Below are positions 13,563 through 54,144 of a stretch of 64,000 nucleotides of DNA, in pieces (position 1 is the stretch's first letter; the number at the start of each line of letters is the position of its first letter). The position numbers and the translations under genes are program-made. The stretch lies in the IMG/VR virus record IMGVR_UViG_3300005918_000016; one strand, written 5' to 3'. The notes below the pieces were generated by a model that had not been told where the DNA came from, did not search any database, and was given only the letters and a program-made list of their open reading frames with translations. The DNA comes from a virus. Lineage: Duplodnaviria > Heunggongvirae > Uroviricota > Caudoviricetes.

Positions 13563-15428
13563 ATGCGAGTTGCATCCGTTGAGAAAGTACCGGGACCCAG
13601 AAGAGCCTTTGATCTGACAATCCGCAATACGTCCTGTTACTTTGTGGGGCCTGGAATTTTAGCACACAACTGTGGGATGAGATACGAAAACAGGAAGCTA
13701 GTGCAGGCGCTGACACGGGGCGACGGGACGATAGGCGAGGATATCACCCGGAACGTCCTGCTGATGAAGGGTGCAGTCAAGGTACTGCCCCCGACGTTAC
13801 CGGATGGCACCCCCACCCCAGACGATGTGTGGGTGCGGGCCGAGGTTGTGGTGACCCACGATGACTTCGTCACCCACTTCAAGGGCGAATCCAACCCCCG
13901 TAACACGGCGAGCGGCACTGCGAAACGTCAAACTGACAACAGCAAATGTGCCTTCCTGACGGTTATCTGCTATCAACTCCTGCCCGGTGGTCGCCCGATG
14001 GCGTCCAAGAGCGCCGAGTTGAAGGCCCTGGCCACGATGGGCTTCCAGGTACCCCGCTGGGGTGAGTACAAGGGACTGGCAGCAGTGGAGGCCCTCTACC
14101 AGGACTACATCGCCACCGTCAGGAAGAGCCTGGGTTACGATATCGACGGGCTGGTGATCGAGGTGGCTGACGCCAACGCCCGTGCGATGCTTGGGGAACT
14201 GAACAACCGCCCCAAGGGTGCCTGCGCTTATAAGTTTCCTCATGAGTCCAAGCCGACCACGCTGCGGAGCATCCGTTGGCAGGTAGGCAACAGCGGGCGC
14301 ATCACCCCGGTGGCCGAATTTGACGTTGTGAACCTCGCAGGGGCGAACGTCAAACAGGCGAGCCTTCACAACATCAGCAACATCGAAGGGCTGTGGGGCA
14401 AAGCCACTGTTCCGGTACCCGGCGACGCAATTCTCGTTTCTCGCAGAAATGATGTTATCCCCTATGTAGAGGAAGTCCTGAACAAGTTCGGTACAGGCAC
14501 GGGACTCCGCACCCCGACCCAGTGCCCCTCCTGCCAGGGAGCCTTGGTGCGGGACGGCGAGTACCTTGTGTGCCGCAGCGAGGAGTGCCCCGCCCAGGCA
14601 ACCGGGGCCATCAGACGCTGGGTCAAGAAGCTCGGTGTCCTACACGTTGGCGAGACCCTGATCGACGCAATGGTGGATGCGTTCCCTTTCACCCTCACCG
14701 AGGAAGTGTTTGAAGTCACCTTCGGCGTAAAGAAGGATGACGTGAAGACCCTCCCGGCAGCGGATCAGGAACGGATACGCAACGCCCCAATGGACATCGC
14801 TGACCTCTACAACCTGGACCTGGACGAGGTCGCCTCCCTGGAGTTGAGCGGACGGCGTGTCGGCGGCTCGGCGGACAAAGCCCTCAGGAACCTTAACGCC
14901 AAGAAGACGCTGCCCCTGCACGTCCTGATAGGGAGCCTGGGTATCCCCCTGATCGGGCGCAGCATGGCCAAGGTGGTTGTGGACGCTGGATACACCACCC
15001 TGAACCTGCTCTTCAAGGCCAAGGTGCATGTTCCCATCGTCACCAGGGGCAAGACCCTCCCGGCAGTTGCCAGCATCCCTGGAATGGGGGACACGAAAGC
15101 GCTGGCCTTCGTGACGGGATTTGCTGCCAAGGCCGGGCTGATCGTCAAGTTGCGGGCCACGCAAGACCTTGGCGGAGCCGACATCACCATCCAGGACATC
15201 TCCGGGCCGTTGCTCGGGATGACCTTTTGCCTGACTGGCACCCGTGAACCCGCCCTGCTCGATGCTATCGAAAAGGCGGGTGGCACAATGAAGGGCAGCG
15301 TGTCCAAGAAACTATCCTACCTGATCGCCCTGGACCCGGACAGTACCTCGGGCAAAGCGAAAAAGGCCAAGCAGTACGGCGTGAAGGTGATCGGCTTGGA
15401 CGAGGCGTACAAGCTGGCGGGGGTGTGA
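13563..15428 (+). CDS. ligA: split-intein C-half (36 aa, ...GILAHN) fused to the NAD-dependent DNA ligase C-terminal extein (Cys4 Zn finger, HhH, BRCT)
   Basis: MRVASVEKVPGPRRAFDLTIRNTSCYFVGPGILAHN|CGMRYENRKLV...TRGDGTIGEDIT continues the LigA sequence after KLDG. CPSCQG...CRSEECPAQ zinc finger. C-terminal BRCT-like region. Confidence 0.75.
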   Translation: MRVASVEKVPGPRRAFDLTIRNTSCYFVGPGILAHNCGMRYENRKLVQALTRGDGTIGEDITRNVLLMKGAVKVLPPTLPDGTPTPDDVWVRAEVVVTHDDFVTHFKGESNPRNTASGTAKRQTDNSKCAFLTVICYQLLPGGRPMASKSAELKALATMGFQVPRWGEYKGLAAVEALYQDYIATVRKSLGYDIDGLVIEVADANARAMLGELNNRPKGACAYKFPHESKPTTLRSIRWQVGNSGRITPVAEFDVVNLAGANVKQASLHNISNIEGLWGKATVPVPGDAILVSRRNDVIPYVEEVLNKFGTGTGLRTPTQCPSCQGALVRDGEYLVCRSEECPAQATGAIRRWVKKLGVLHVGETLIDAMVDAFPFTLTEEVFEVTFGVKKDDVKTLPAADQERIRNAPMDIADLYNLDLDEVASLELSGRRVGGSADKALRNLNAKKTLPLHVLIGSLGIPLIGRSMAKVVVDAGYTTLNLLFKAKVHVPIVTRGKTLPAVASIPGMGDTKALAFVTGFAAKAGLIVKLRATQDLGGADITIQDISGPLLGMTFCLTGTREPALLDAIEKAGGTMKGSVSKKLSYLIALDPDSTSGKAKKAKQYGVKVIGLDEAYKLAGV

Positions 15429-17903: not shown

Positions 17904-18394
17904 GCCAGGAAAAGTGGACGCCGGAAACAGTCAAAACCTTCCGAGAGAAACGTGGCCTCAATCAACATGCCCTCGGTGTCCTCATGGGGTACGTGGGTCA
18001 GCGTTCTACCACGATGGCACACAGTGAGCAGAGGCTCCCGGACGGGACACCCCGCCGCTCCCTGACGATTGCGGACAGGGTTCGCCTGGACTACCTCCAG
18101 CAGTTGCCCCTCCCTGAGTTGTATGCACTACTGAGGGACAACGATGCTGATCCCAAGGACAATGCCAAGTGGGTCCAGATCAGCATCTGGGAGTATGAGT
18201 TCCGTGAGCGGGGCGAAGTCAAAGCGGAGTGTTGCCCCATTATGCAGGACGACGGGTCGCTGATGTGGGGTGTGCGGGTACTGCCCATGACATTCCCCTT
18301 CGAGGAAATACGCCTGTATCGCATACTACGGAGCGCCAAGTGCTCCGTTCAGGGGACGGCAGAGGAAACCTCGGATCATCCTGTGTGCCTGTAG
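17900..18394 (+). CDS. HTH (XRE-like) domain protein
   Basis: TVKTFREKRGLNQHALGVLMG helix-turn-helix; ATGA overlap. Confidence 0.45.
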   Translation: MSQEKWTPETVKTFREKRGLNQHALGVLMGYVGQRSTTMAHSEQRLPDGTPRRSLTIADRVRLDYLQQLPLPELYALLRDNDADPKDNAKWVQISIWEYEFRERGEVKAECCPIMQDDGSLMWGVRVLPMTFPFEEIRLYRILRSAKCSVQGTAEETSDHPVCL

Positions 18395-18400
18395 GAGTAG
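18372..18400 (+). promoter_or_regulatory. CGGATCATC-N14-GAGTAG motif variant
   Basis: 14-nt spacer; AAGGAGAC; ATG at 18449. Confidence 0.4.
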
Positions 18401-18448
18401 ATCAAGTAACTGGGGGATGTGAGGCCCCGCTGAAACAAGGAGACGACC

Positions 18449-18715
18449 ATGTGGATGGAACTGGCAATAGCGGGAGTGTGGGTGCTTTTTGGTTTCATCG
18501 TTTTCGCTTTCAACAGGATGATCCTGCCCCCTGTGACACAGTTTCTCGACAGTCTGTGTCGCAACCCGGTTTATCACAAGTATTCCGTTGAACGAATCCT
18601 CCTGGTATGGCCAATGTACATAATCAACATGTGCCTGACCTTCCTGATGCTGGTGACACCGCTCTACGGCTTTTGGTTGACAACCCAAACACTATGGCCC
18701 CTGCTAGGGACCTGA
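18449..18715 (+). CDS. small membrane protein
   Basis: Hydrophobic helices. Confidence 0.4.
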   Translation: MWMELAIAGVWVLFGFIVFAFNRMILPPVTQFLDSLCRNPVYHKYSVERILLVWPMYIINMCLTFLMLVTPLYGFWLTTQTLWPLLGT

Positions 18716-18727
18716 GGAGAATAAAGG

Positions 18728-19195
18728 ATGACGGACCAGACCGAAAGGGACCAGGTTTTCTACGCTAAACTACAACGGAACCGGCGGGAACGGCTCGACC
18801 TCTACAAGAAGGGTGAGTACCTAAAAGGGCTGGCCTTTTGGCTGAGCCTCAGCGCATCCGCTCTGCTAATCATCACTGCCTTCGTAGTGGTGTGGGGCCT
18901 CGGCAAGGCAGTGGACACCCTCGAAGCGATGGACCCCCTGGTCGTCACCAAGGTCGAGACCGTGGTGGAGGAGAAGGTGATCAAGGTGCCCTGCCCGCCG
19001 CCCCCCGTAAGCAACACCGGAGGCGCTGTGGACGGGAAACTCCAGGTCGTTGGGGTTGGGAGCGCCACCCGGTGTGAGATGCACACGGACACGGGGTGGG
19101 TCGTGGTTCCAGCCTCAGCCTGTCCGGCACTCCTCCAGGGAATGCTACCCCCACAGCCGTCCACTCAGGGTGGTGGCACCGCAGCGGGGGGTTAG
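18728..19195 (+). CDS. membrane-anchored hypothetical protein
   Basis: GAGGAG RBS; one TM helix. Confidence 0.4.
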   Translation: MTDQTERDQVFYAKLQRNRRERLDLYKKGEYLKGLAFWLSLSASALLIITAFVVVWGLGKAVDTLEAMDPLVVTKVETVVEEKVIKVPCPPPPVSNTGGAVDGKLQVVGVGSATRCEMHTDTGWVVVPASACPALLQGMLPPQPSTQGGGTAAGG

Positions 19196-19199
19196 TCCG

Positions 19200-19463
19200 A
19201 TGGCTTCAAAGCGAGATCCCCTCTGGTACGAGTTCATTGTACGGACACTCCCAAAATGGTTCGACCCGAAGGTCCACAGTGCCAACATGACGGTCCCCAT
19301 CTGTGGCCTCTGTGGGTGCAGCGGACGCCTTGATCAGCCGGTACCGGGGTGGGATGCCCGTCTCAAGGGCTTCTGCATCTGTCCCAACGGACGAGCGTTG
19401 AAGCGTCAGGTTCGGAAGGCGGAACTGAAACGCCTGAAAGCGGAAGAGGAAGCAGATGACTGA
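19200..19463 (+). CDS. Cys-rich small protein
   Basis: CGLCGCSG...CICPNG. Confidence 0.35.
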   Translation: MASKRDPLWYEFIVRTLPKWFDPKVHSANMTVPICGLCGCSGRLDQPVPGWDARLKGFCICPNGRALKRQVRKAELKRLKAEEEADD

Positions 19464-19519
19464 ATCAATGACACGAACCGATGCTGCTGCTATCCTTGAC
19501 TGCCCCGAGGAGGTACTCA

Positions 19520-19800
19520 ACCGTTCCTTAAAACCTGCTAAAATGTAACAGGCATCAAGTTTGAAGCTGTGCCGAATCTTGGTGACCCAAGTACCTCGGT
19601 AGTAAACCTCCGGCCCAACGGTAAGGGCTCGATTGACGACCGCTCTAATCGCCCGAATCCTAAGGAACTGGTCCGTCGAAGACGGAATCGCTCTCTCAGC
19701 ACTCGTTTTACGCCTCGTGGATGATCGCCAGCTTTGGTGTGTTCATTCCCAGAACATCTGGGCACACCAGAACCTCCTACCCAATCAGCATAAGCCTTCC
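19520..19800 (-). ncRNA. omegaRNA-like scaffold, orphan copy
   Basis: Conserved ~280-nt block. Confidence 0.55.
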
Positions 19801-19873
19801 TGCCACAACAGCTCCCTGTTTCAAGCAGGAATAGTTAGACTTTAGTAAGTTTGAGGGGTACTGTCAAGTACCC
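19520..19873 (-). mobile_element. second MITE-like TnpB-element derivative (left end plus omegaRNA/right end, no tnpB)
   Basis: Same left-end/internal-deletion junction as the 2143-2496 copy. Right end ...GGAACGGT at 19520 (minus). Confidence 0.7.
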
Positions 19874-19890
19874 TCCACCATGGGGATTGT

Positions 19891-20217
19891 GTGGGGGCAG
19901 ATTCTGAGGCTGACTCTGTTGCTGAGGAGCTTGGTTTGTACCGTGTCACACACCCGCCTGAAAACCCGAAAAACCGAGCCTACTGTGTAGCTGATGAAAC
20001 CCATCCCCTCAAACCCTATACCGTCCGTGACCATGACATTGTAGACGCCTCTCAAATTCTAGTGGCGTGCTCGAAAGCAATGCATGAGATACAGCGCTCA
20101 GGTACATGGGCAACCGTCAGGTATGCTCAAAAACGGAAACGCCCCGTCCTGGTCGTTTGGCCGGATGGCACTGTCGGCACCTTGTGGTATGGTGCTGTTG
20201 GGACTAAGCTACATTAG
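19891..20217 (+). CDS. hypothetical protein (start uncertain; 5' end abuts the mini-IS left end)
   Basis: ORF begins at a GTG 18 nt from the element end. Confidence 0.3.
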   Translation: MGADSEADSVAEELGLYRVTHPPENPKNRAYCVADETHPLKPYTVRDHDIVDASQILVACSKAMHEIQRSGTWATVRYAQKRKRPVLVVWPDGTVGTLWYGAVGTKLH

Positions 20218-20237
20218 GGAAATCCGAGGAGCGCAAC

Positions 20238-20591
20238 ATGTCCGTTTACATATACCAACCTGATGCCTTTGAAAAACTCATTGAGGTAGAAGGCGAGGAT
20301 TACCGACGTCTTGGCACCCAGGAGCGGATGGGGCACTGTTCCTTTGACGCCTTCAAGGACGTTTGGGAGGCCGGATACACCTCTTTGAAGGGTACTGACA
20401 AGCTCAGACCTTGCCTCCATGTAAAGGGTGGCAGTGCCATCTACGGCTGGTGGGGATGGAACCGTTATGCAGTGGCTGCAAAGGGTGAAATAATTTTTCT
20501 GACGGGCCTGGCTCGTACAGGCGAGGACATTACGAAGGCTACCGCCGTTGGATTCAGACTGGACAAGGAAGCCTTCAAAAACCAAACGTAG
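20238..20591 (+). CDS. hypothetical protein
   Basis: GAGGAG RBS. Confidence 0.4.
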   Translation: MSVYIYQPDAFEKLIEVEGEDYRRLGTQERMGHCSFDAFKDVWEAGYTSLKGTDKLRPCLHVKGGSAIYGWWGWNRYAVAAKGEIIFLTGLARTGEDITKATAVGFRLDKEAFKNQT

Positions 20592-20793
20592 TCCTGAAGC
20601 GTAAATCCAGGGGCACCTCCCATCTGGAAAAGTTCGAAGCCTAGACAACCCCACCATCGCCGGTATCATACGAATAACAGAGGAGGCATTGACATGCCCC
20701 TGTTCCTTTATTTCGCTGGTTCCTTCCTTGTGGCCTTCGGGGCCGAAATGATCCACACGGCCCAGACCATTATTGACGAGGAGTAGGCCCTAA

Positions 20794-20991
20794 ATGCTAG
20801 AGAAGACGGGCTTCTGCACATGCTGCGGGGCCACTCAAAAAATGAGCGCTCTCCGGCAAACCCGTGTCCGGGGCGTCCCGGTGATAGAGTGCCTAGATCG
20901 AGATGCCTGTGAACGACGCTGCAAGGACGGGCGGTTAAAACGTCTCATCGGGTTGTCCGTAAGGTCTCACACGGGGTCGCTTTTCGGCTGA
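20794..20991 (+). CDS. Cys-rich small protein
   Basis: GAGTAG at 20781 plus RBS. Confidence 0.35.
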   Translation: MLEKTGFCTCCGATQKMSALRQTRVRGVPVIECLDRDACERRCKDGRLKRLIGLSVRSHTGSLFG

Positions 20992-21000
20992 ATGGAGTAG
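20973..21000 (+). promoter_or_regulatory. degenerate motif GGGGTCGCT-N13-GAGTAG
   Basis: Correct spacing, 6/9 match in the upstream box; AGGAGG; ATG at 21021. Confidence 0.3.
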
Positions 21001-21020
21001 ACCAAGTCAGGAGGTGTTCC

Positions 21021-21626
21021 ATGTCCGTCAAATTCACCAAGAAAGGCATTGCCATCGAAAAGGGTACCACTCCCCCCTCGTGGGAGGACACCGACCAGCA
21101 GTATCAGGAGTACGTGGGCCACCAGCTTCTCAAAGCTCGACTGGAGCACCTGAAAATCTTGGAGGAAATCGCAGGGGTGCTGCCCGTGTTCGAGGAACGG
21201 CACCTCCTCAATATGGAGGCGCATCAGGCAGCGATGATTTACCTGAACCTCCCGGATCCAGGCCCCCTTTTCCCGAGCTACCAACGAAACTTTATCACCA
21301 TGAACACCACGGTAATGGACCCTGCAATTTCCTGTGCCGGGGTGATGCCCCATGTCAGGGTACTTCTTGGGTGGCTCGCTTTTCCTGAGACAATCCGAGA
21401 AGGCGTCTGCTACCACCTCTTGACGGCGGGACGTGCTCTTTACCCTTTTGGATACGACTCAGGCCGTTCGGGTTTCACCCTCCTCCAGGAGCGTGTGGGA
21501 CACTGCGTCGCTGCCGGTCTCGCTGCCTGTGAAAAACTCGGTTTTGATGGTACAAGGACGCCCCGGAAATCGGTGGTTGAACAACTCGTCCAGACTGCGG
21601 CCCTTCTCACGGAGGACACCGAATGA
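21021..21626 (+). CDS. hypothetical protein
   Basis: RBS AGGAGG. Confidence 0.45.
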   Translation: MSVKFTKKGIAIEKGTTPPSWEDTDQQYQEYVGHQLLKARLEHLKILEEIAGVLPVFEERHLLNMEAHQAAMIYLNLPDPGPLFPSYQRNFITMNTTVMDPAISCAGVMPHVRVLLGWLAFPETIREGVCYHLLTAGRALYPFGYDSGRSGFTLLQERVGHCVAAGLAACEKLGFDGTRTPRKSVVEQLVQTAALLTEDTE

Positions 21627-22390
21627 GCACCGCAATCATCGTACTCGGTCATGGTGGTGGGATCCCCGTCCCTGGGATGGGCAACACGAACTTCGCCATC
21701 GTCCCGAATGCCCCCAGAGGGATCCCCGGACCAGAGTTGCTCCAAAGCCATCCCTTCTGGTTGGTCGACTGCGGACCAGAGACCCTCGCCACCCTGGTCG
21801 GGTTGCGTGCCCTGAAGAACCTGAAGGGGATCTTCATCACGCACGTACACTACGATCACACTGGGGGCCTACTCGGGCTGGCCTACACCTTCAAATACAT
21901 GTTGAAGCGCAAGATCCCTCTCGTGATCCCCAGCAAGCTCCAAGTGCTGCTGGAACAAACGATGGTGGAGTTGACACGGACATCAGGTGGCCCAGCTAAC
22001 GTGTGGTTGGACTACTGGCAGGGCTGCTTCCTGGGGAATGGTGCTGACCTGGAGGTGGAGGGTTTCACGGCGGAGTTCTTCCCCGAGGATCACAACATCG
22101 AAGATTTCCCTGTCTATGGGGTCAAGATCCGGGTGCCCTCCTTGCGTAAGGTTTACTTCACAGGCGACACCGTTAACCCCTCGGACAAGGACGCAGACAT
22201 CATCTTCCAGGACTGTCAGGTCTACGGGGACGATTCCAAGTACGACGTCCACTGTTCCTACCAAAAAATCCTCCAGGCGTTCCCCGAAGGATGCCGGGAA
22301 CACGTCATCCTCTGTCACTGCCCCCCGCAACCGCAGTTCGAGGAGGACGGTTTCAAGCACGCCACGCAGTGGAGAGTGTTTTACGTCTGA
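21623..22390 (+). CDS. MBL-fold metallo-hydrolase (HxHxDH: THVHYDHTGG)
   Basis: Canonical metallo-beta-lactamase motif II. Immediately followed by a solitary CRISPR-like repeat. Confidence 0.6.
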   Translation: MSTAIIVLGHGGGIPVPGMGNTNFAIVPNAPRGIPGPELLQSHPFWLVDCGPETLATLVGLRALKNLKGIFITHVHYDHTGGLLGLAYTFKYMLKRKIPLVIPSKLQVLLEQTMVELTRTSGGPANVWLDYWQGCFLGNGADLEVEGFTAEFFPEDHNIEDFPVYGVKIRVPSLRKVYFTGDTVNPSDKDADIIFQDCQVYGDDSKYDVHCSYQKILQAFPEGCREHVILCHCPPQPQFEEDGFKHATQWRVFYV

Positions 22391-22394
22391 GTGC

Positions 22395-23030
22395 CTAAGT
22401 CGCATCTTTTGGCAAAAGGTGCGTGGATTGAAACGGCGTGACCCCTGACAGATAGATGATCGCCTGACCGCTCACGGGGTCATAGGAACCCTTAACGGTC
22501 AGGGACGCCTCCGCCGGGCGGGACACCACGGGGATCTTGGGCCAGTCCCGGATGAGGATCCCAACCAGCCGCTCGGACTCCTGGACGATTCTGTGGGGCG
22601 GGATGAGCAGCGTGAGGGTGTCCCCATCGAAAGCAACGGGATGGAACCCCCGCTTCCACAACCACTCTAACAGGACGATCAACTCGGGGTGCTCCTCGGC
22701 CAGGATCTGGATGCCCTTCACCAAGGGGCGGAAGGCGTTGTCCGGTAAACCGAACGCCGAGTCAGGGATCGAGACCTCGGTGAGGCCCTCTGTCCAAGCA
22801 CCCCACTGGGGATTCACGGGAACGGTACGGGGAGCGCCACGCTTGCCCCACAGCGCCCCCAGAGCCTCCTGTTCCTGTGCCTGCTCCTCTTCGGTCAACT
22901 GGACCCACAGGAGGCGCTCACGGGACACGAAGCCCTGGTCCTCATCCGGGGTCCAGGGCAGTCCTTCGGGAAGTGCCCTGCCTACGAGGATCATGAGGGC
23001 CAGGTCACGGTGCTGTTCTAAAAGTGTCAT
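22395..23030 (-). CDS. hypothetical protein (C-terminal codons run through the solitary repeat, so the true end is uncertain)
   Basis: ORF only. Confidence 0.3.
   Translation of the reverse strand: MTLLEQHRDLALMILVGRALPEGLPWTPDEDQGFVSRERLLWVQLTEEEQAQEQEALGALWGKRGAPRTVPVNPQWGAWTEGLTEVSIPDSAFGLPDNAFRPLVKGIQILAEEHPELIVLLEWLWKRGFHPVAFDGDTLTLLIPPHRIVQESERLVGILIRDWPKIPVVSRPAEASLTVKGSYDPVSGQAIIYLSGVTPFQSTHLLPKDAT
22399..22434 (+). CRISPR. solitary CRISPR-like repeat unit GTCGCATCTTTTGGCAAAAGGTGCGTGGATTGAAAC
   Basis: Same length and orientation as the array repeat. 3' handle GTGGATTGAAAC is identical; stem changed by paired substitutions (GCATCTTTT/AAAAGGTGC). Confidence 0.75.
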
Positions 23031-23129
23031 GCAGCTACTTTACCCGGATCATGTTGCTCGGAGGTAGAAGTTTGAACTGTTCCCGAAAAGCTAGGCAAAC
23101 GTGCTCCATAAGCCGCCACTGAAAACCGC

Positions 23130-23158
23130 TTGACACACCATGGGTGTCTATGTACCAT
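23130..23158 (+). promoter_or_regulatory. sigma70-like promoter TTGACA-N17-TACCAT
   Basis: Good -35, 17-nt spacer, -10-like hexamer 22 nt upstream of the HTH gene. Confidence 0.4.
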
Positions 23159-23179
23159 TAGGGAGAGCAAGGGAGAACT

Positions 23180-23365
23180 ATGGAGCCCATCCTTCTGACT
23201 ATCAACGAGGTTGCCCGTTTGTTCGGGATGCACCCAAATTCGATCCGTAAACTCATGGGCGATGGCAGACTACCCTTTCTTAAGATCGATAAGTCGCTGC
23301 GGTTCGAAACTGATGCCGTGATGCTATTTATTGAGAAACTCAGGAAACAGAGAGCGAAGGATTGA
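23180..23365 (+). CDS. small HTH DNA-binding protein (excisionase/MerR-like)
   Basis: LTINEVARLFGMHPNSIRKLMGDG helix-turn-helix. Confidence 0.5.
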   Translation: MEPILLTINEVARLFGMHPNSIRKLMGDGRLPFLKIDKSLRFETDAVMLFIEKLRKQRAKD

Positions 23366-24761
23366 CGTCTTGAAAGTCACTCGCATTCTTCAGGCAGATG
23401 TTCCGCCTGCTTTGTTGCAGGTGTGTCGAGCTACCAGATTTCTTCGTGCAGATGTCTGGCGTCGGTACGGTGCCCTGAAGAACGTGGGTAAAAGTGCCTT
23501 GGCTATCCGTAAAGAAATTGTAGCAGGTGGCATCTACGTCACTCTCGCCATAGACGGGACCATACGTAACGAAACAACCAAAGATGTCGTGAACGACATC
23601 CTGTTCTACAAAGCAGCAGCGAAAGGAAAGGTTCGCAAAGCCATTTGGCAGCGCACCGACAATGAAATGGAACGCAAACGACTCTACACGCTTCTGCGAT
23701 CAGACGCATGGATGGAGGATCCCTTCCTTCACCGCCAAATGCGTAAACACTTCAAGCACGGCGTCTCACACACGAAAAATCAGTTTATCGTGAGGTCCGA
23801 CAAATTCAAAATAGAGCACGTTAATGGGTATCTGACGATCGTCATCCAAATTGCCCGTAAATACGGTGACGACATAGTTCTAACGACAACGTCAAACGGC
23901 ACGAGTGTGGATCTGAGTAGCTGTAACCTACGCATCATTGTGAAGGGTGGTACAACTGAGATCCACTACAGCGTGGATAAAAGCAGTGGGCGTCCGCATG
24001 GTAGCCGGACGCTGGGCGTTGATAAAGGCTACACCGAAGCATTTGTTGATTCGGATGGTGAGCATCAGGGTGAGCAGTTCGGTGCTGTGATGACTGAGTA
24101 CAGCGACAAGGTCAGCAAGACGGGTTCCGCTAGAAACAAGTTGTACGCCCTAGAAAAAAAGCATCGTCAAAGCGGAAACTCCAGAAAAGCTGACAACATC
24201 AGGGCACACAACCTTGGGTGTAAAAAGATTGATGCTCGTAAACGATTGGCTCAAACACGACTACGGGGTGTAGCCTTTAAGGCTGCTCATGCCATCGTGG
24301 ATAAGGCAGCGGTGGTCGTGTCAGAAGACTTAACCTCTCCGATCGCAAAAAAGCGACCTTGGAAAAGGTTTAATAGAAGAATGAGTGGCTGGGCAAAGGG
24401 AGCACTTGCTGAGGCCCTCGATTCAGTTTGTACGCAGCGTGAAGCCAGCCATGAGTTGGTAAACTGTGCTTACACATCGCAAATGGACTCTGTAACGGGT
24501 TTGCTGCAAGGCAAGCGTGTTGGAGACAAATTTTACCGTATTAACGGGGATGTTATTCAGGCCGATCACAATGCTGCGCTGAACGTGTTAGCCCGGTTGT
24601 CTGACAAGGACATCGGGTGTTTCACCCCTTATCAAGAGGTAAAACGCATCTTGTTGGCACGTTCTCCGGCGGAACTGACCGTCAAAAGGCACGAGTTGCA
24701 GTCGAGAGGCTCTCAACCGTGTGCGGATAAACCCTCACGATCAGGAGTGATCAATGCTTGA
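23331..24761 (+). CDS. divergent TnpB/RuvC-like nuclease lacking zinc-finger cysteines
   Basis: GVDKGYTEAF (RuvC-I-like), VVVSEDL (RuvC-II E), ADHNAALNV (RuvC-III). The usual CxxC...CxxC ZnF between RuvC-II and III is absent. Confidence 0.5.
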   Translation: MRNSGNRERRIDVLKVTRILQADVPPALLQVCRATRFLRADVWRRYGALKNVGKSALAIRKEIVAGGIYVTLAIDGTIRNETTKDVVNDILFYKAAAKGKVRKAIWQRTDNEMERKRLYTLLRSDAWMEDPFLHRQMRKHFKHGVSHTKNQFIVRSDKFKIEHVNGYLTIVIQIARKYGDDIVLTTTSNGTSVDLSSCNLRIIVKGGTTEIHYSVDKSSGRPHGSRTLGVDKGYTEAFVDSDGEHQGEQFGAVMTEYSDKVSKTGSARNKLYALEKKHRQSGNSRKADNIRAHNLGCKKIDARKRLAQTRLRGVAFKAAHAIVDKAAVVVSEDLTSPIAKKRPWKRFNRRMSGWAKGALAEALDSVCTQREASHELVNCAYTSQMDSVTGLLQGKRVGDKFYRINGDVIQADHNAALNVLARLSDKDIGCFTPYQEVKRILLARSPAELTVKRHELQSRGSQPCADKPSRSGVINA

Positions 24762-25065
24762 GGAACAGCAGATGGTTGCCGTTCTCGTCGCTGCTGGTAC
24801 GTCCGCCTACGGGGACGACAGCAAACTGACTGATACCGCTCGTGACTGGCTCTCCGCAAGGTTTTCCCCCGAGGACACACAGTTCTGGTTGGAAGCTGGC
24901 TGCTGGGATGTCAAGGTCGCCAGGGCCTTCAAGGACGCTGACCTGGACTCCGAGGACGTAGAGTTCGAAACTGCCAAGCCCACCAAGAGCACGATTGCCC
25001 ATAAGGTCTGCGCCGGGGAGATATCCCTGAACGCCGCCATCCGCATCGCCAAGAGCCGCCAGTAG
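24754..25065 (+). CDS. hypothetical protein
   Basis: RBS AGGAG. Confidence 0.4.
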   Translation: MLEEQQMVAVLVAAGTSAYGDDSKLTDTARDWLSARFSPEDTQFWLEAGCWDVKVARAFKDADLDSEDVEFETAKPTKSTIAHKVCAGEISLNAAIRIAKSRQ

Positions 25066-25090
25066 ATCATCGACCTAGCTGTGCGAGTAG
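25063..25090 (+). promoter_or_regulatory. TAGATCATC-N13-GAGTAG motif
   Basis: Exact spacing; AGGAGG; ATG at 25112. Confidence 0.5.
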
Positions 25091-25111
25091 ATCCCTGTAG
25101 GAGGTTCCGCT

Positions 25112-25720
25112 TTGTCTGTTATGCCCGCCACCATCGGGAAAGCCGTCCCTATTGGAGCGCATCCCTATGCAACTGTCGTAGCGGAATACATCCTCCAGGT
25201 GTTTCCTGTGGCCCTCCAAAACCATTGCTGGTGGTGGGGCCAGTCGGAGGGAAAGGAAACGATTCTTATTGTGACCCTGTGTCAAACACCACATATCAGC
25301 CTTGGGTTCCAGTTTCGCAAAGACAGTTTGCGTGTTCGATTGGTCCTACAACAAAAGCCCCTTCACACCTTTGAACTGCAGCACTATCTGGATGAGTCCC
25401 TCATTGGTTGGTTGTCCTTAGCGGCGGACACCCTGGACGAGCACCTCATGTTGATGCAGACCAAAAAAACGGCTCATCCTGTTTTTCAAAACATGTCAAG
25501 AATTTCTTTGTGGTGTGTGGACCTAATGGAGACCGTGCGAGTCAATCCCGGTACCTACTTCACCTGGAACTCAGATTATCGGATCATTAATCCGATCCTG
25601 GCGGAGGACCCAACGGCTCGCCTTGATGACATCGATGAGCAGTGTCTTAGCCTAACCACGTCTGAGGAGTTTTACGCACTGGTTCGCAAAGGGCAGTTCC
25701 GAGGACCTATGCTTTATTAA
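25112..25720 (+). CDS. hypothetical protein
   Basis: Motif plus RBS. Confidence 0.45.
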   Translation: MSVMPATIGKAVPIGAHPYATVVAEYILQVFPVALQNHCWWWGQSEGKETILIVTLCQTPHISLGFQFRKDSLRVRLVLQQKPLHTFELQHYLDESLIGWLSLAADTLDEHLMLMQTKKTAHPVFQNMSRISLWCVDLMETVRVNPGTYFTWNSDYRIINPILAEDPTARLDDIDEQCLSLTTSEEFYALVRKGQFRGPMLY

Positions 25721-25789
25721 TTCCTGGGCTGTTCCTTTCAGGAGCCCGTTGAGTAGAGCAGTTGTGGCCTTTTAGCAGGAGAAAAAGAG

Positions 25790-28060
25790 ATGAGCTATCC
25801 GACCCGTTCCGATGTGTCCCAGTGCTGTGCCGATTTTAAAGCGTGGCTTCGCAGGCAGGGGCTTGGGGGAAAACCCGCCAGGGACTACGCCCGATGTGTC
25901 CGGGCAGTAGAGAAACACACCTCTGGTTATTATTTCACCGCCGAAAATGTCGAGAAAGTGCTCAAGGTCAACACCCGTGTCTATCGGACAGCGTGGGCGG
26001 GCAAAAACGGTTTCATGGCCTACTGGGCGCAGCGGGAGAAAGAGGTGACCCAGGCCTGTGGTGTCCTGGACGTTCTGGCAGCAATGTCGGGTGGTGGGGC
26101 ACCAAAGCCGACCAAGGGGTCACCTATGAAGGTAGAACCCATCTCCCAGAAGGAGTTCGAGAAGATTTGTGGGGCACCGAAGCCGTCGCGTCAGCTTCCT
26201 GACTTCTCCCAGTTGGCAGAAGGCCACGTGGATGCCGTCAAAACGGATGACCAGGGTCACCTCCACGTCACTATGTGCATCGCTCGTAACAGTAACCTCG
26301 CCAAAATGGTGCTGGAGGGCCTCCCCCTGAGGTTGGTCCCGGCGGACCCGACCAAGCAGCCCCGATACACGGATGAGGATCTCCAGCAGGCACTGGAAGA
26401 GGACCGGGGGAAGGAGGGTCGTGCGGGTCGTGACTCCGCCCGGAACATCCTGAAAGAGATCATCGGCAGGTTGTTGGGGAAGACCAAGACGGAAGTCAAC
26501 GACATCGCTCGGTACTCCCACGCTAAGGACAACGAACTCAAGGACTTCATCCTGGAGTTGGTGCAGGCGCAGGCGTCCTACAGGAACGGACTGAACCTCG
26601 TCTACGAGACCCTGCTCGGGGCTGTCCCGGAGGATCTGGGGGACGGGGCGGGACGGAAGGCCCAGGCGATCCTGAAAGCGCTCCCTCAGAAGGATCTCAT
26701 CGAGGAGATCCTCGGGGATAAGCCTTCGGACGAATCGGGTCTGCTCACCTTCACCAACAGCCTCCTCATGGGGCTGGCCAGGGTGTTCGACACGTCGGAC
26801 GTGGACACGGGGATCGCTTGGAAGCCCGAGATGACGTCGGAACGGATCATCGAAAGCATCCACAGGATACGGACAAAACAGGAGAACGGCCTCGTTGTAG
26901 CGGCCCTGCGGCGGGTGGCCGAGAAGACCCTGGGCCTCAAACTCCCCCCCGGTTTGAGCCCTGAAATGTTGGAGCAGCACATCCAGCACAAGGTGTCTGA
27001 CTTGCAGGGGCTGTCCACCGGGGGTCGCCGGTGGGAACAGACCCTCTGGACTGTGTACCGGATGGTGGTAGAGTCTGCCCCTCCCGGTACGGCTTCCCCC
27101 GAGGGGATCATTGGAGCAGTCCAGGACAAGGTCAAAGCCATCCAGTCCGAGGCAGTCCAGTGGCGGGCCGCTCTTCTGAACATCATCCCGATGTTGGGAG
27201 GGGAACCCAACGGGGATGCGACCCCGCAGAGGGCGTTGGAGATCATCGGTGCCCTGCTCAAGGAACGGGATCTCAAAACGTTGCAAGCCGGGACGGGGAC
27301 ACCCACAGGAGCACCTGTCATGTGGGAACAGGCGCTTCGTTCCATTGCCGGTTTGATCGGGGGGGACGACTGGACTAACGCTGAAACCCCTGAGGAGATC
27401 CGGGACGAGACCGTAGCTCTGGTGCGATCCCTGGAGCAGCGGGAACGGTTGTGTGTCCTGTCCAAACTGGCAGGGATGATGGGCGACTCCTATATGGAGG
27501 TCGTGGACGATGCCGTTGGACCTGAGGGTGTGGGAGGTTCCCACCAGGATGTGGAACATGATGTCCTGGTGGCCCTTGTGAAGGCTGTCTCGCAGGACCG
27601 CACGGCACCCGAGGAGAAACCCTCGGGCCTCCCCTACAACCTGTTCAAGCTGGTCACCCTGCTTGGCAGTCCGCTGGTGGGGGACATCGCTTCGGCACCC
27701 AAGGAGGCGGGAACCACCGACGAGGCCAAGACCGAGTACATCGTCAACCTCATCGTTGAGCAGTGGAAGGAGATGGCTGGATGGCGACAGGCCATGCTCG
27801 ACCTGCGCCTCACGGACCTCAAGTACTATTGCCCCACTTTGTCGGAACAGGAGGTGGCAGTTGTCAGCCTCGTTGATGCCAAGAGGACCTTGAGCGAGGG
27901 CATCCGTAAACTCTTCCTGAGGAAGACCGCATCGCCAGTTTCCGCCGATCATGTCATTCTCGCAATGGCTGCTCGGTATGGTGAGAGGACGCACCTGGAG
28001 GTGCCCAAGTCTGCGGTGGACGATCTGTTGGGCACCCTCCAGGTACTGCTCAAAACTTGA
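25790..28060 (+). CDS. large protein with an N-terminal integrase-N/SAM-like domain (FKAWL...GFMAYW) and a long alpha-rich tail; member of a 4-gene family
   Basis: Shares the domain ending W-x-G-x-x-GF(M/L)A(Y/F)W with 45246, 58482 and 61136. GAGTAG at 25751 plus AGGAG RBS. Confidence 0.5.
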   Translation: MSYPTRSDVSQCCADFKAWLRRQGLGGKPARDYARCVRAVEKHTSGYYFTAENVEKVLKVNTRVYRTAWAGKNGFMAYWAQREKEVTQACGVLDVLAAMSGGGAPKPTKGSPMKVEPISQKEFEKICGAPKPSRQLPDFSQLAEGHVDAVKTDDQGHLHVTMCIARNSNLAKMVLEGLPLRLVPADPTKQPRYTDEDLQQALEEDRGKEGRAGRDSARNILKEIIGRLLGKTKTEVNDIARYSHAKDNELKDFILELVQAQASYRNGLNLVYETLLGAVPEDLGDGAGRKAQAILKALPQKDLIEEILGDKPSDESGLLTFTNSLLMGLARVFDTSDVDTGIAWKPEMTSERIIESIHRIRTKQENGLVVAALRRVAEKTLGLKLPPGLSPEMLEQHIQHKVSDLQGLSTGGRRWEQTLWTVYRMVVESAPPGTASPEGIIGAVQDKVKAIQSEAVQWRAALLNIIPMLGGEPNGDATPQRALEIIGALLKERDLKTLQAGTGTPTGAPVMWEQALRSIAGLIGGDDWTNAETPEEIRDETVALVRSLEQRERLCVLSKLAGMMGDSYMEVVDDAVGPEGVGGSHQDVEHDVLVALVKAVSQDRTAPEEKPSGLPYNLFKLVTLLGSPLVGDIASAPKEAGTTDEAKTEYIVNLIVEQWKEMAGWRQAMLDLRLTDLKYYCPTLSEQEVAVVSLVDAKRTLSEGIRKLFLRKTASPVSADHVILAMAARYGERTHLEVPKSAVDDLLGTLQVLLKT

Positions 28061-28078
28061 ACCAATGGGAGCAACACC

Positions 28079-28291
28079 ATGAGCGACAACAAGCCTTTCG
28101 AGAGTAAGTTCAACAACTGCATGGTCCTCTGCCGGAAGATCATCGACAACACCGGGGACGCCGTCGTGGTGTCCCTGGACGGCTACCTCCTCGCTCCCTT
28201 GGAGGACGTCCCCATGGAGGTTCTGCAGAGCCTCTTCCCCAACTGTAACACCCCCCGGATCCCCGGACAGAACAACAAGACGACGGTTTGA
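28079..28291 (+). CDS. hypothetical protein
   Basis: GGGAG RBS. Confidence 0.4.
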   Translation: MSDNKPFESKFNNCMVLCRKIIDNTGDAVVVSLDGYLLAPLEDVPMEVLQSLFPNCNTPRIPGQNNKTTV

Positions 28292-28662
28292 GCCTCCTCG
28301 AAACACTCCAGAACGTAGACTGCGCCACGCCGTGCCTGAAGTGTGGTCGCCACCTTGAATGGAACAGGCACGCCCACCATGTGGAGGGCAATGACTTGGT
28401 CCTGGGTTGCCCCGACTGTAGTAAAGGGACGGAAGGCCTCCCCTGCCATCACCGTACTGTTCTGGGGGCAACTCCGCCGAGAGATCCTCGGAAGATCATC
28501 CTCGGACATTCGGGAGTAGACCCTGTGAGGAGGAAGGATGGGCAGGTTGCTTCAGTTCGAAGATGGTGTACTCCGCAGGAAACTCCAAGAGTTGCTCATC
28601 AGCGTCGACCGGCTCGACTTCAAATTCCTCCGTTTCTTCACCATTTGTGTCGGGTGTGGTAA
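28288..28662 (+). CDS. Cys-rich zinc-ribbon protein (TTG start; 3' end overlaps the next gene, extent uncertain)
   Basis: CLKCGRH...CPDC. Confidence 0.3.
   Translation: MSLLETLQNVDCATPCLKCGRHLEWNRHAHHVEGNDLVLGCPDCSKGTEGLPCHHRTVLGATPPRDPRKIILGHSGVDPVRRKDGQVASVRRWCTPQETPRVAHQRRPARLQIPPFLHHLCRVW
28492..28519 (+). promoter_or_regulatory. AAGATCATC-N13-GAGTAG motif
   Basis: 13-nt spacer; GAGGAGGAAGG; ATG at 28538. Confidence 0.5.
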
Positions 28663-28753
28663 ACCCATCAGACCTCGCAGGGGTCCACGGGGCAGCGAGT
28701 CGTTGCTGTGCCCGGACTGTGCCGAGAAGGAGCCACCCGATGCCCTTAAATGA
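28538..28753 (+). CDS. zinc-ribbon small protein
   Basis: CVGCG...CPDC. Confidence 0.45.
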   Translation: MGRLLQFEDGVLRRKLQELLISVDRLDFKFLRFFTICVGCGKPIRPRRGPRGSESLLCPDCAEKEPPDALK

Positions 28754-28931
28754 AACCCGTCAGGTCATGGTGGCCACCTATTCTTGTGGTCATTCAGCAC
28801 AGTTTACGGGGGCTTATCCGTTGGTGGGTGACCCCACCACCTGTATGCACTGCCTGAAAGAGGTCGTTGTGACTGAACTCCACAAGGAGTTCGTTCCTCG
28901 GCCACCCAAGGTGTTCTGGAGGAACACATGA
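28740..28931 (+). CDS. Cys-containing small protein
   Basis: Start overlaps the upstream stop. Confidence 0.35.
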   Translation: MPLNETRQVMVATYSCGHSAQFTGAYPLVGDPTTCMHCLKEVVVTELHKEFVPRPPKVFWRNT

Positions 28932-29239
28932 AAACCGCAGACGGCGTCGAGATCGTGTTGGGGGAAACCACAGGCTACATAATAAGCGAGGACGAGAAGA
29001 CCCTCTTGTCGTTCGTTCTCCGGCCCTCCACAGGTGGGGAAAAGGTTGCCCGTGTTGCGACCCCCGATGGGAAGGGCAGCATCGGGACCATTTCAGTGTA
29101 CTCTGACCCCAAGCCCCTGCTCCTGGCCCACATCGCCAAGATGGACGGGTGCATCACTGAAACGTCCACAAAGCTGACCGGCTTCCAAAAACGAAAGAGC
29201 GTCTTCGCCCGGCTGTTGGCGGAAACGACGCAGTCATGA
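28928..29239 (+). CDS. hypothetical protein
   Basis: ATGA overlap; GGAGG. Confidence 0.4.
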   Translation: MKTADGVEIVLGETTGYIISEDEKTLLSFVLRPSTGGEKVARVATPDGKGSIGTISVYSDPKPLLLAHIAKMDGCITETSTKLTGFQKRKSVFARLLAETTQS

Positions 29240-29484
29240 GCCTTTCGAACCCAATGAGCGTCATGCTCATCCTTACGGCCAATTACGGCGGCAAATGGAC
29301 GTACAATCGCAAGCAGACTCAATGGGACTGCGATGACGGACGATACGTCCAACAACGTCCGGGTGAGGACAATGATCACCCGGACGTGTGGCACCTCCAC
29401 AGGGACGGGGACGACCCAGTACTGCTAGTAGCACCTACGATAGAGGGGCTGAGACGGGCTGTTCATCGGCTTGACGGAGGTTGA
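29236..29484 (+). CDS. hypothetical protein
   Basis: ATGA overlap. Confidence 0.4.
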   Translation: MSLSNPMSVMLILTANYGGKWTYNRKQTQWDCDDGRYVQQRPGEDNDHPDVWHLHRDGDDPVLLVAPTIEGLRRAVHRLDGG

Positions 29485-29485
29485 A

Positions 29486-29845
29486 ATGGACGAGTTCCTG
29501 GCACTGTGTGTGGAGTACCTGGAGGAGAACAAGGCTGCTGGGATCAACCCCCAGAAGCCCGTGATGTTCGTGGACCGGGGTGATGCCGTTGGGATGTACC
29601 ATAAAGGCACCCTGAGGCAGATCCTGGAGCAGGCGCTGGCCAAGGAAATGCACACCGCAGTCAGGGCAGCGACCTTCACCAAGCGGGAGGACGATGCCTG
29701 GGTGGTGGCGCTTCTCCCCCATTTCCCCCTTACGGGTTGGGAACACAGGATCTACCCCACGAACTCCAACGGAGTCCCTGATCTGAACGACGTCTTCATC
29801 CCCAATGACTTGATCCAGGAGGCCGTAGATGCGTTGGAAAAGTAA
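29486..29845 (+). CDS. hypothetical protein
   Basis: GGAGG 6 nt before ATG. Confidence 0.4.
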   Translation: MDEFLALCVEYLEENKAAGINPQKPVMFVDRGDAVGMYHKGTLRQILEQALAKEMHTAVRAATFTKREDDAWVVALLPHFPLTGWEHRIYPTNSNGVPDLNDVFIPNDLIQEAVDALEK

Positions 29846-30050
29846 AGCGTCACAGAACCCCCACGAACCGTTCAAGCTGGTCTTCGTCTGGAGTGCTAGG
29901 GAGTGTCTCGCCTGCGGTGGGAACTTCTTGTTGGAACGGATGTACATCCACACCCAGGTGAACGAGGGCGGTGGCATCTCTGAGACATGCTACTGCAAAG
30001 GGTGCGGGAACATCCCTGATCGTCTCGTCCTGGCCAAAGGGGACGACTAA
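29829..30050 (+). CDS. zinc-ribbon small protein (CLACGG...CKGCG)
   Basis: ORF with paired CxxC. Confidence 0.35.
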   Translation: MRWKSKASQNPHEPFKLVFVWSARECLACGGNFLLERMYIHTQVNEGGGISETCYCKGCGNIPDRLVLAKGDD

Positions 30051-33232: not shown

Positions 33233-33439
33233 ATGAAACGAACCATGATCGTCCGAGTGACCACAACCGAATTTGAAACGTCTGATGGACGGGTGATCCC
33301 ACACCCCATTCCGTTTGATCCCGATGAGGTGCCTACCGTCGAAGAGTTCCAACAACAGTACAACAGGTGGCGCAAGGTCTTTGAAGATCAAGGACTGGTG
33401 TTTCCCATACCTGATGCGGGAGATGAGGATGCTGACTGA
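33233..33439 (+). CDS. hypothetical protein
   Basis: Preceded by the hairpin CCTCCAC...GTGGAGG. Confidence 0.3.
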   Translation: MKRTMIVRVTTTEFETSDGRVIPHPIPFDPDEVPTVEEFQQQYNRWRKVFEDQGLVFPIPDAGDEDAD

Positions 33440-34070
33440 TCGTCTCCTAGCTCTCACCAAAGCAGCCGAAGCTCTTGGTGTTCACCGGAATACGCTTCGG
33501 GACTGGGCTGATGAAGACAAGATCCCTCACGTTCGCACCGTGGGTGGGCATCGCCGTTTCAAGCAATCAGACATTGACAGGTTGCTGGGCAATCTCCCAA
33601 TCGATAAACAGCAAACGGAACGAGTTGTTATCTACTGCCGTGTGTCCAGCCACGATCAGAAAAAGTCAGGCGATCTTGAACGTCAGGCTGGACGGGTCAC
33701 GATACACAGCATCACGAAGCAGTACAAGTTGGTCGAAGTGCTTCAAGACGTTGGGTCGGGCATGTCAGACACACGCCCAAAACTCCGAAAGTTGTTCAAA
33801 CTGGTCAATGCCCATGAAATAGATAGGGTGGTTGTTGAACACAAAGACCGCCTGACTCGCTTCGGGTTCAATCTGGTCAATGCTTACTTCAACAGTCATG
33901 GTGTCACCATCGAGTGGACACAAGAAGTCCTTGGCAAAGGCTATCAGGAAGAGTTGGTCGAAGACATTTTGACGCTCATGTCGTCGTTCTCCGCTAAGAT
34001 TTATGGCAAACGTTCGGCAGAACGACGTAAGGCCAAGAAAGCAGCAGAAGCGGCAGAGACAGTCAAATGA
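33424..34070 (+). CDS. tnpA: IS607-type TnpA (MerR-like HTH plus serine recombinase)
   Basis: N-terminal HTH (LGVHRNTLRDWADEDKIP); VVIYCRVSSHDQ catalytic-Ser region; resolvase fold motifs. Confidence 0.75.
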
Positions 34071-53830: not shown

Positions 53831-54144
53831 CAATGAAAAGTCACGAAACGATCATCGTCGAACAAACGGTCTCGGACGGGGACTCGGGCTGGATTCACGG
53901 GATGATGACTACCGTCATCCGTTTCATTGTGCCCGAGTTGGACAACCTCGCAATCACCGTTCACAAGGACAGGCTGTACATACTCACCGGCTTCGACCTG
54001 AAGGAGGCACCCGACACCAAGGTCGTGGGGCACTGCCAGCTTCCCGCCGAGACGGTCAACAAAGCCCTGGCCTATGCTGATGCCAAAAAGGAAATCATCA
54101 AAATCCTACAGCCCCTTGTGGATGAGCACATCACCGTTCCTTAA
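53827..54144 (+). CDS. hypothetical protein
   Basis: ATGA overlap. Confidence 0.4.
   Translation: MTMKSHETIIVEQTVSDGDSGWIHGMMTTVIRFIVPELDNLAITVHKDRLYILTGFDLKEAPDTKVVGHCQLPAETVNKALAYADAKKEIIKILQPLVDEHITVP

Follow-up and report, generated by a model that had tools for sequence, protein, structure and literature searches.

What does a TnpB-like nuclease without a zinc finger, encoded directly downstream of a small helix–turn–helix (HTH) protein, represent in the genome of a tailed phage? The question is raised by a 64,000-nucleotide stretch of Caudoviricetes DNA (IMG/VR record IMGVR_UViG_3300005918_000016), here called the window, to whose first letter all coordinates refer unless another locus is named. 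A sequence-only reading of positions 23130–24761 had proposed that the nuclease might belong to a domesticated or otherwise unusual RNA-guided lineage. The explanation favoured here, with good though not complete confidence, is that positions 23068–24768 are a non-autonomous derivative of an IS607-family element in a huge phage from Ace Lake, in which an intact, finger-less tnpB and its omegaRNA scaffold have been retained, tnpA is gone, and an orphan HTH gene stands instead.

The tnpB Gene and Its Product

23370–24761, + strand: tnpB, 463 amino acids, WED/REC/RuvC/TNB, TTG start (profiles, AlphaFold, Foldseek, and the ratio of nonsynonymous to synonymous substitution rates, dN/dS).

Both open reading frames (ORFs) first noticed in this region exist and the longer one does end at 24761, but its product had been taken to have 476 amino acids, a reading that starts at the TTG of 23331 and overlaps the HTH gene. 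All homologs begin instead with M-x-V-T-R, which corresponds to the TTG at 23370, four bases past the HTH stop codon, and the public gene call likewise gives 463 amino acids, which, judged from these alignments, is most likely the true length. The 463-residue protein is matched by the NCBIfam profile guided_TnpB (NF040570; E = 5.8e-17) and by the Pfam profile TNB (Cas12f1-like, PF07282; 2.9e-5); the PF01385 profile gave no match, and a phmmer search against PDB sequences returned nothing meaningful. Its AlphaFold model, built on a 49-sequence alignment, has a predicted local distance difference test score (pLDDT) of 88.4 and a predicted template modelling score (pTM) of 0.76. Foldseek comparison with the PDB found 59 structures with E ≤ 0.001. 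Each of the 50 listed is a Cas12-family protein (among them Cas12f, Cas-lambda, Cas12m and Cas12k), a TnpB (ISDra2, ISFba1) or Fanzor2, and the alignments extend over 440–500 columns. According to the model, the protein is a full-length TnpB with the WED/REC/RuvC/TNB fold, and its earlier assignment to the TnpB/RuvC-like nucleases is borne out by the guided_TnpB profile, the model and the listed fold matches. The N-terminus, which had been considered unrelated to those of the other TnpB copies in the window, is so by sequence; nevertheless, Cas12f and TnpB structures can be aligned with the model from end to end and, therefore, this portion is the usual WED/REC part.

The catalytic triad is formed by D218 in GVDKGY (24021–24023), E319 in VVVSEDL (24324–24326), and D399 in ADHNAALNV (24564–24566), the RuvC-I, RuvC-II and RuvC-III motifs that had been recognised by eye. 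The motifs are real; these residues are at least 90% conserved in the 49-sequence alignment, which reaches down to 27% identity, and in the model they are placed at the end of a β-strand (213–219), at the end of another (313–319), and at the start of a helix (398–409), respectively. By analogy with characterised TnpB proteins, this one would act as an RNA-guided nuclease that depends on a transposon-adjacent motif (TAM).

The phage carries a second tnpB copy (locus L008), located ~260 kb away at ~101 kb on the contig, which is 86% identical at the amino acid level and differs in 16% of its nucleotides. The dN/dS ratio is 0.08–0.11, both between the two phage copies and between them and close relatives. 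By this comparison, tnpB is under purifying selection and both phage copies are maintained as proteins even though they are without tnpA. Two repeats inside the ORF, a 17-nucleotide direct repeat (23890/24680) and a 13-nucleotide perfect inverted repeat (24023/24267), are not conserved in relatives and were treated as chance occurrences.

Zinc-Finger Loss and the TnpB Clade

24465–24563, + strand: TNB (zinc-ribbon-like) segment without Cys ligands, residues 366–398, CAYTSQMDSVTGLLQGKRVGDKFYRINGDVIQA (alignment, model).

There are no CxxC pairs between YTSQ and ADHNAA, as had been seen in the letters, and a check for displaced ligands was negative, with no conserved Cys or His and none of the seven Cys residues of the protein conserved across the wider clade. 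The segment is modelled as β-hairpins with pLDDT above 90. The window subclade and many others share the pattern YTSQ-x-D-S-x-T-G...F-Y-R-x-N-G-x-V-x-Q-A-D, and more distant clade members carry YTSQ-x-C-x-x-C-G...C-x-x-C...A-D at the same alignment positions (e.g., YTSQTCHHCG..HCTTCG in P0136).

A word-indexed search recovered more than 1000 TnpB homologs, the best 120 of which are 64–88% identical over their full length, and an exhaustive search gave 965 clusters at 50% identity. The homologs come from Acidithiobacillus, Thiocystis, Allochromatium, Rhodoferax, and many metagenomes, and are named in their sources as "transposase", "IS605 OrfB family transposase", or "ORFB of ISCARN12, IS200/IS605 family IS1341 group". 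From these alignments, zinc-finger loss is common to the whole clade. Moreover, such loss in large TnpB branches has already been published (Altae-Tran et al. 2023; PMC10691335), and the zinc finger was not treated as universal in that survey of TnpB proteins (PMC10691335). The proposal of a domesticated or unusual nuclease lineage is thus not borne out, since the family is very large, multicopy and annotated as transposases, and its finger loss is clade-wide and published: this tnpB is an ordinary member of a large, known and mobile TnpB clade.

An omegaRNA-Like Scaffold within the 3′ End of tnpB

24581–24768, + strand: omegaRNA (reRNA)-like scaffold, inside the 3′ end of tnpB and continuing seven nucleotides past its stop codon (covariation, covariance model, synonymous rate).

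The TnpB of IS607 elements uses an RNA of ~150 nucleotides that runs past the right end (PMC10711439), and a conserved noncoding RNA had been suggested as something to look for at the 3′ end of the present gene. A conserved, covarying omegaRNA-like scaffold that ends at 24768 is indeed present. Its well-supported core spans 24658–24768, with helices at 24665–24727, 24668–24683, 24689–24722, 24732–24764, and 24737–24754, and a possible outer helix joins 24581–24588 with 24657–24664. Across 24 loci, RNAalifold and pair counts support 39 pairs, with 94.3% of cells paired and 17 pairs changed on both sides; none of 500 shuffles scored as high, and pairing fell to 31–45% when the partners were slid. 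A covariance model made from 22 loci, with both phage copies excluded, finds 24658–24768 as its single match in the window (102 bits, E = 4e-25) and scores the paralog at 112 bits. No Rfam family matches the 3′ RNA.

The coding sequence bears the mark of the same structure. The synonymous rate (dS) is 3–4 times lower in the last 68 codons of tnpB than in the rest of the gene, and residues 437–463 (24678–24761) are predicted to be disordered; thus, the C-terminal tail of the protein looks like translation through RNA-constrained sequence, and the conservation of amino acids in it (e.g., QPCADK) is probably due to the overlapping scaffold and not to what the protein does. As read from sequence, the arrangement is that of a TnpB omegaRNA/reRNA, with a guide expected from 24769 onwards.

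IS607 Relatives and Recurrent Loss of tnpA

The IS607 connection, which had been drawn from the HTH gene, is supported by the relatives of tnpB. In about two-thirds of the related loci, a TnpA of 190–230 amino acids with a MerR-type HTH and a serine recombinase domain is encoded directly upstream of tnpB, and in intact relatives its stop codon overlaps the start of tnpB. The genome of Ca. Aalborgicola contains four copies of one such unit, in which the stop codon of a 208-residue TnpA overlaps the tnpB start and the element ends 4 nucleotides past the tnpB stop codon. The closest relative outside the window phage (L068; 88% amino acid identity, 87% DNA identity in tnpB) is also a complete tnpA–tnpB unit.

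The DNA similarity between the two phage copies of tnpB is limited to the ORF, and the second copy is without an HTH gene. At positions 3886–4000 of L008, the second copy preserves a recognisable left end, a promoter and the start codon of tnpA (ATGAGCA), while almost all of tnpA has been deleted. Another phage-like contig (L065) has a recognisable left end and represents a third independent loss of tnpA. On the basis of these loci, loss of tnpA with retention of tnpB is recurrent in phage genomes.

Some elements of the family contain a conserved small ORF of 60–85 amino acids between tnpA and tnpB, with the pattern MTFPLEQWFDIT...EAQMMLYAVK...KR.Y.EMRKAVK.HN, found at L067 2750–2941, at L065 2687–2875, and just upstream of tnpB in L023, L024 and L025. 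No Pfam match is recorded for the L065 and L067 copies in the gene-context tables, and the small ORF has no obvious resemblance to the HTH gene of the window.

TnpB elements are numerous in this part of the phage. The three other TnpB genes to which the finger-less one had been compared (34067–35491, 54106–55572 on the − strand, and 49559–50671 on the − strand) each show a clear TNB/zinc-ribbon match. One of them is part of an IS607-type unit (33315–35491, + strand) that is complete and belongs to another TnpB family; in it, a 251-residue TnpA (HTH_17/MerR plus Resolvase) overlaps a TnpB of 474 residues.

Insertion Site and Element Ends in the Huge Phage

23068–23101, + strand: degenerate left-end remnant of an IS607-type element (match to the L008 left end).
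24754–25065, + strand: downstream phage gene, 103 amino acids (comparison with L073/L074 and direct sequence reading).
24769–24788, + strand: predicted guide segment, the first ~20 nucleotides of phage flank past the right end, CAGATGGTTGCCGTTCTCGT (right-end boundary).

The window protein is encoded on the JGI contig Ga0208769_1000001 (528,260 bp), which has been published as a complete, circular huge phage of ~528 kb from Ace Lake, Antarctica (PMC7416419), and TnpB is encoded in identical form on 23 contigs, which stem from several samples of that lake. The GC content is 48–50% across 23000–24780, which holds the HTH gene and tnpB, compared with 58–63% in the adjoining genes. Every retrieved copy of the flanking gene carries the insertion (three distinct places, representing 24 contigs, including two genomes of ~520–528 kb), a lookup by identical flanking protein that returned insertion-bearing contigs only; the uninterrupted site came from a metagenome scan, in diverged relatives only. 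In these relatives, L073 and L074, the flanking gene for a 211-residue protein is followed by 83–100 nucleotides and then by a homolog of the 103-residue gene, with no HTH gene or tnpB between them. Since the flanking genes are adjacent there, both the HTH gene and tnpB are an insertion relative to these phages. For the flanking gene, exact-pattern and protein scans of IMG/VR returned nothing, and the DNA of the region found no match among GenBank phages.

The right boundary is sharp. Conservation over 24 independent loci stops abruptly after ...GGA(A/G)CAG, which corresponds to 24768, 7 nucleotides past the tnpB stop codon, and homology with L073 and L074 resumes within two codons of this point. 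By comparison with these relatives, the insertion has replaced the original 5′ end of the downstream gene, which is left without its own ribosome-binding site and first codons, whereas L073 and L074 keep their own Shine–Dalgarno sequence and ATG. The right end now contains an in-frame ATG (24754) and AGGAG for the 103-residue gene, in overlap with the stop codon of tnpB (24754–24772, ATGCTTGA).

At the other side, host-like intergenic sequence extends up to ~23066, and homology to L073 and L074 ends just before the left-end remnant. The latter shares 23 of 33 nucleotides with the left end of the paralog (L008 3887–3920), a match as high as which was seen in none of 2000 shuffles. The sequence CTGAAAACCGCTTGACA (23119–23136), which resembles the left end of the Aalborgicola element, had also been considered and was dropped in favour of 23068–23101 after comparison with the left end of the paralog. 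No terminal inverted repeats of the element were found. In 15 of 17 elements, the left end is preceded on its 5′ side by GGAG(C/A), and the uninterrupted site of L073 has GGAGC at exactly the corresponding point; hence, GGAG(C) may be regarded as the candidate target and TAM motif. The stretch at 24769–24788 could serve as the guide, as the known TnpB mechanism suggests; the predicted guides of the two phage copies have no extra matches in the window above chance.

Several observations weigh against the reading of this locus as an IS607 derivative with a functional TnpB. Both family scores lie below their curated cut-offs (62 bits against 100 for NF040570 and 24.6 against 26.3 for PF07282), which makes the protein a divergent TnpB member, and its activity cannot be assumed from typical TnpB proteins given that the TNB zinc finger is absent. 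The left-end profile derived from bacterial elements is significant in L008, L065 and L067 and not in the window, where the left end therefore appears to be eroded. The relatives that provide the empty site are only 68–73% identical to the window phage in the 211-residue flanking gene. At the junction, ~40 nucleotides of host sequence that the relatives have are absent, which, like the weak left end, makes the exact left boundary and the history of the insertion tentative. Moreover, the candidate TAM is drawn purely from flank conservation.

The missing tnpA, the eroded left end, the absent finger and the sub-threshold scores could also be taken to indicate an inactive relic, that is, a decaying transposon fragment whose ORF has stayed open by chance. 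This would be most surprising, since dN/dS is close to 0.1 over 463 codons for two copies that are well separated in nucleotide sequence, the triad and the RNA scaffold are intact, with compensatory changes between the copies, and the loss of the finger is common to hundreds of multicopy, evidently mobile relatives.

The HTH Gene in the Place of tnpA

23180–23365, + strand: HTH gene, 61 amino acids, stand-alone MerR/excisionase-type winged HTH in the tnpA slot (profiles, model, context).
23130–23158, + strand: TTGACA-17-TACCAT, a putative sigma-70-like promoter that precedes the HTH gene (consensus scan, 10 of 12 positions).

The small protein is what it had been taken for, an excisionase/MerR-like HTH, with two matches above their cut-offs, Pfam HTH_17 (PF12728; 1.6e-10, 41.5 bits against 27) and the excisionase family TIGR01764 (1e-6, 29.0 bits against 28.8), and a further match to a PHROG excisionase/regulator (1e-6). 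Its AlphaFold model has a pLDDT of 85, and the nearest structures are MerR N-domains, BldC and phage Xis, the best at E = 0.058 and none at E ≤ 0.001. Among 5.8 billion proteins, no homologs were found beyond the protein itself. Because the left-end remnant lies upstream of the gene, the HTH gene sits inside the element, where tnpA belongs.

This location is compatible with the proposal that the HTH is what survives of the element's own IS607 TnpA, its N-terminal DNA-binding domain, after deletion of the recombinase domain. The gene has the slot and orientation of tnpA and ends 4 nucleotides before tnpB, within the element ends; it shares the fold class of TnpA N-domains (HTH_17/MerR); hhalign aligns it in register with the N-termini of the family TnpA proteins (probability 54%, 28% identity); and BLASTP gives E = 3e-4 against the N-terminus of the other IS607 TnpA in the window. 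However, the cognate N-domains are 56–81% identical to one another and the HTH reaches at most 28%. The TnpA of L068 finds no match in the window, in DNA or in protein (tblastn), although the tnpB genes are 87% identical in DNA, and homology to L068 begins only at 23363. In addition, nothing in intact elements corresponds to the ~80 nucleotides, promoter included, that separate the left-end remnant from the start of the HTH gene, and AACTG and the ATG are ~105 nucleotides apart here as compared with ~55 in those elements. Thus, of the leftover idea, the tnpA slot inside the ends stands, while the resemblance to TnpA is reduced to fold-class likeness. A recent truncation of the cognate TnpA was rejected on the grounds of the missing similarity to the L068 protein, the lack of homologs and the 28% hhalign identity, and descent of the HTH from the element's own TnpA in general is considered improbable. 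From the sequence comparisons it is concluded that the HTH gene either came in as a substitute for tnpA or is what remains of it after extensive divergence, and that its product is an orphan MerR/excisionase-type protein.

As to expression, the sigma-70-like site that had been pointed out, a putative promoter, is present and agrees with the consensus in 10 of 12 positions, but sites of this quality are no rarer in the region than expected by chance (two found and 1.4 expected). An imperfect palindrome, GACAC-A-CCATGG-GTGTC, can be read over the −35 box and the spacer (23132–23148), and an 8-nucleotide perfect inverted repeat, GCTCCATA/TATGGAGC (23103–23110/23179–23186), has its arms on either side of the promoter region and includes the start codon of the HTH gene. 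The repeat or the palindrome could be an operator for the HTH protein, which most likely would regulate the promoter of the operon.

The pairing of an HTH gene with tnpB also bears on the possibility of domestication, according to which the phage, after the loss of tnpA, kept the HTH and the TnpB/omegaRNA as a two-gene module for its own benefit. The pair might then act as a weapon, for homing or for exclusion, that is directed at co-infecting relatives without the insertion, or as a nuclease under HTH control, with the promoter possibly driving downstream phage genes as well. Some features would fit: tnpA has been lost from both phage copies and yet purifying selection acts on them; the insertion is found at each of the three places (24 contigs) retrieved for the phage; the start of the downstream gene is now supplied by the right end and coupled to tnpB; the HTH gene is unique to the lineage, co-oriented with tnpB and 4 nucleotides upstream of it; and HTH–TnpB associations have been reported in some branches (PMC10691335). 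Nevertheless, all these observations would be expected just as much if TnpB were selfish and maintained itself, the guide is simply the adjacent flank, as in mobile copies, and TnpA-less ("IS1341-type") copies of tnpB are common. Furthermore, the second phage copy is without an HTH partner, so the pair is not a conserved module, and it occurs in no other genome. Domestication is, therefore, regarded as unlikely. The most elaborate form of the idea is a little more doubtful still: it would have the serine recombinase swapped for a lineage-specific HTH to give a fixed HTH–TnpB–omegaRNA phage module, zinc-independent, with its guide RNA encoded entirely within the ORF and under HTH control, which eliminates or converts insertion-free co-infecting relatives and whose promoter also drives downstream genes.

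Proposed Mechanism

For the favoured non-autonomous IS607 derivative, a sequence of events can be outlined whose steps are modelled on characterised TnpB systems, those of ISDra2 and ISXfa1 (PMC10711439). The HTH gene and tnpB would be transcribed together from the promoter at 23130–23158. The TnpB protein would bind and trim the 3′ part of its own transcript to yield the omegaRNA, whose guide would consist of ~16–20 nucleotides of phage DNA just past 24768. The resulting ribonucleoprotein could cut insertion-free copies of the locus that carry the left-flank motif, probably GGAG(C), beside the guide match, and recombinational repair from an occupied genome would restore or spread the element, a homing-type mode of retention. 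Since it lacks TnpA and its left end is damaged, the element should be unable to excise or transpose by itself.

Comparison with Known Systems

The closest architecture is that of IS607 TnpB/OMEGA systems such as ISXfa1 (PMC10711439). In both cases, tnpB lies downstream of a tnpA for a MerR-HTH serine recombinase (in the intact relatives of the window element), a structured RNA extends over the 3′ end of tnpB and stops at the right transposon end, with a flank-derived guide, and terminal inverted repeats are absent while a conserved short motif is found at both junctions. However, the window copy has no tnpA, has a damaged left end and lacks the C4 zinc finger; the scaffold of its family lies almost wholly within the coding sequence, with the right end 4–28 nucleotides past the stop codon, mostly 4–9; and the junction motif is GGAG(C)/GGA(A/G)CAG, whereas GG/GGG is the one reported for ISXfa1. 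ORFB of ISCARN12 and the transposases of Acidithiobacillus, Thiocystis and Allochromatium are nearer in sequence, with 65–70% full-length identity, the same finger-less TNB segment and the same 3′ RNA, but these copies are bacterial, often multicopy and mostly accompanied by tnpA, whereas the present one is phage-borne and has the HTH gene instead.

Zinc-finger-less branches such as RIIIr-4 (PMC10691335) likewise show branch-wide loss of the C4 motif between RuvC-II and RuvC-III, and some of these branches occur in viruses. In RIIIr-4, however, the RuvC-III Asp is changed to His and there are members associated with MazE/ribbon–helix–helix proteins (PMC10691335), while the window TnpB keeps the Asp (QADHN, of the NADxN type) and belongs to a serine-recombinase-associated group. 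Membership in RIIIr-4 was set aside on account of D399.

The TnpB of ISDra2 (IS200/IS605) and Cas12f share the WED–REC–RuvC–TNB fold (Foldseek E of 1e-8 to 1e-10) and the D–E–D triad, but only 11–16% of the sequence, and both have zinc-binding Cys residues. They also differ in their partners, which are a Y1 transposase for ISDra2 and a CRISPR array for Cas12f; no tandem or spaced direct repeats, and hence no CRISPR array, were found in 18000–30000. TldR proteins resemble the window protein in being phage-borne TnpB descendants without a transposase. Nonetheless, they have lost the RuvC catalytic residues and their guides target host promoters, whereas the present protein has an intact triad and a predicted guide taken from the adjoining flank.

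Neighbouring Phage Genes

Two genes upstream of the insertion, 21623–22390 (+ strand) encodes a 255-residue protein with precomputed Pfam matches to Anti-Pycsar Apyc1 and Lactamase_B, which is likely, from these matches, to be a phage counter-defence nuclease for cyclic nucleotides. Further upstream, 13563–15428 (+ strand) encodes an NAD-dependent DNA ligase (phrog_3869, 4e-107), and near it 12434–13531 (+ strand) encodes a protein of 365 residues with a weak C-terminal match to Vsr/DUF559-type endonucleases.

Significance for TnpB Biology

The peculiarity of this locus is local and modestly interesting: in one TnpA-less copy carried by a huge phage, the slot of tnpA is taken by an orphan HTH, which the second copy does not have. 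The system is not of a new kind, and the current picture of TnpB biology is unchanged by these results. They do provide, with its protein, scaffold, right end, predicted guide and candidate TAM, an annotated member of a TnpB clade that is uncharacterised, has no zinc finger and is associated with a serine recombinase. The clade makes it testable whether RNA-guided cleavage can do without the TNB zinc finger, and how the scaffold of a guide RNA fits entirely within a coding sequence.

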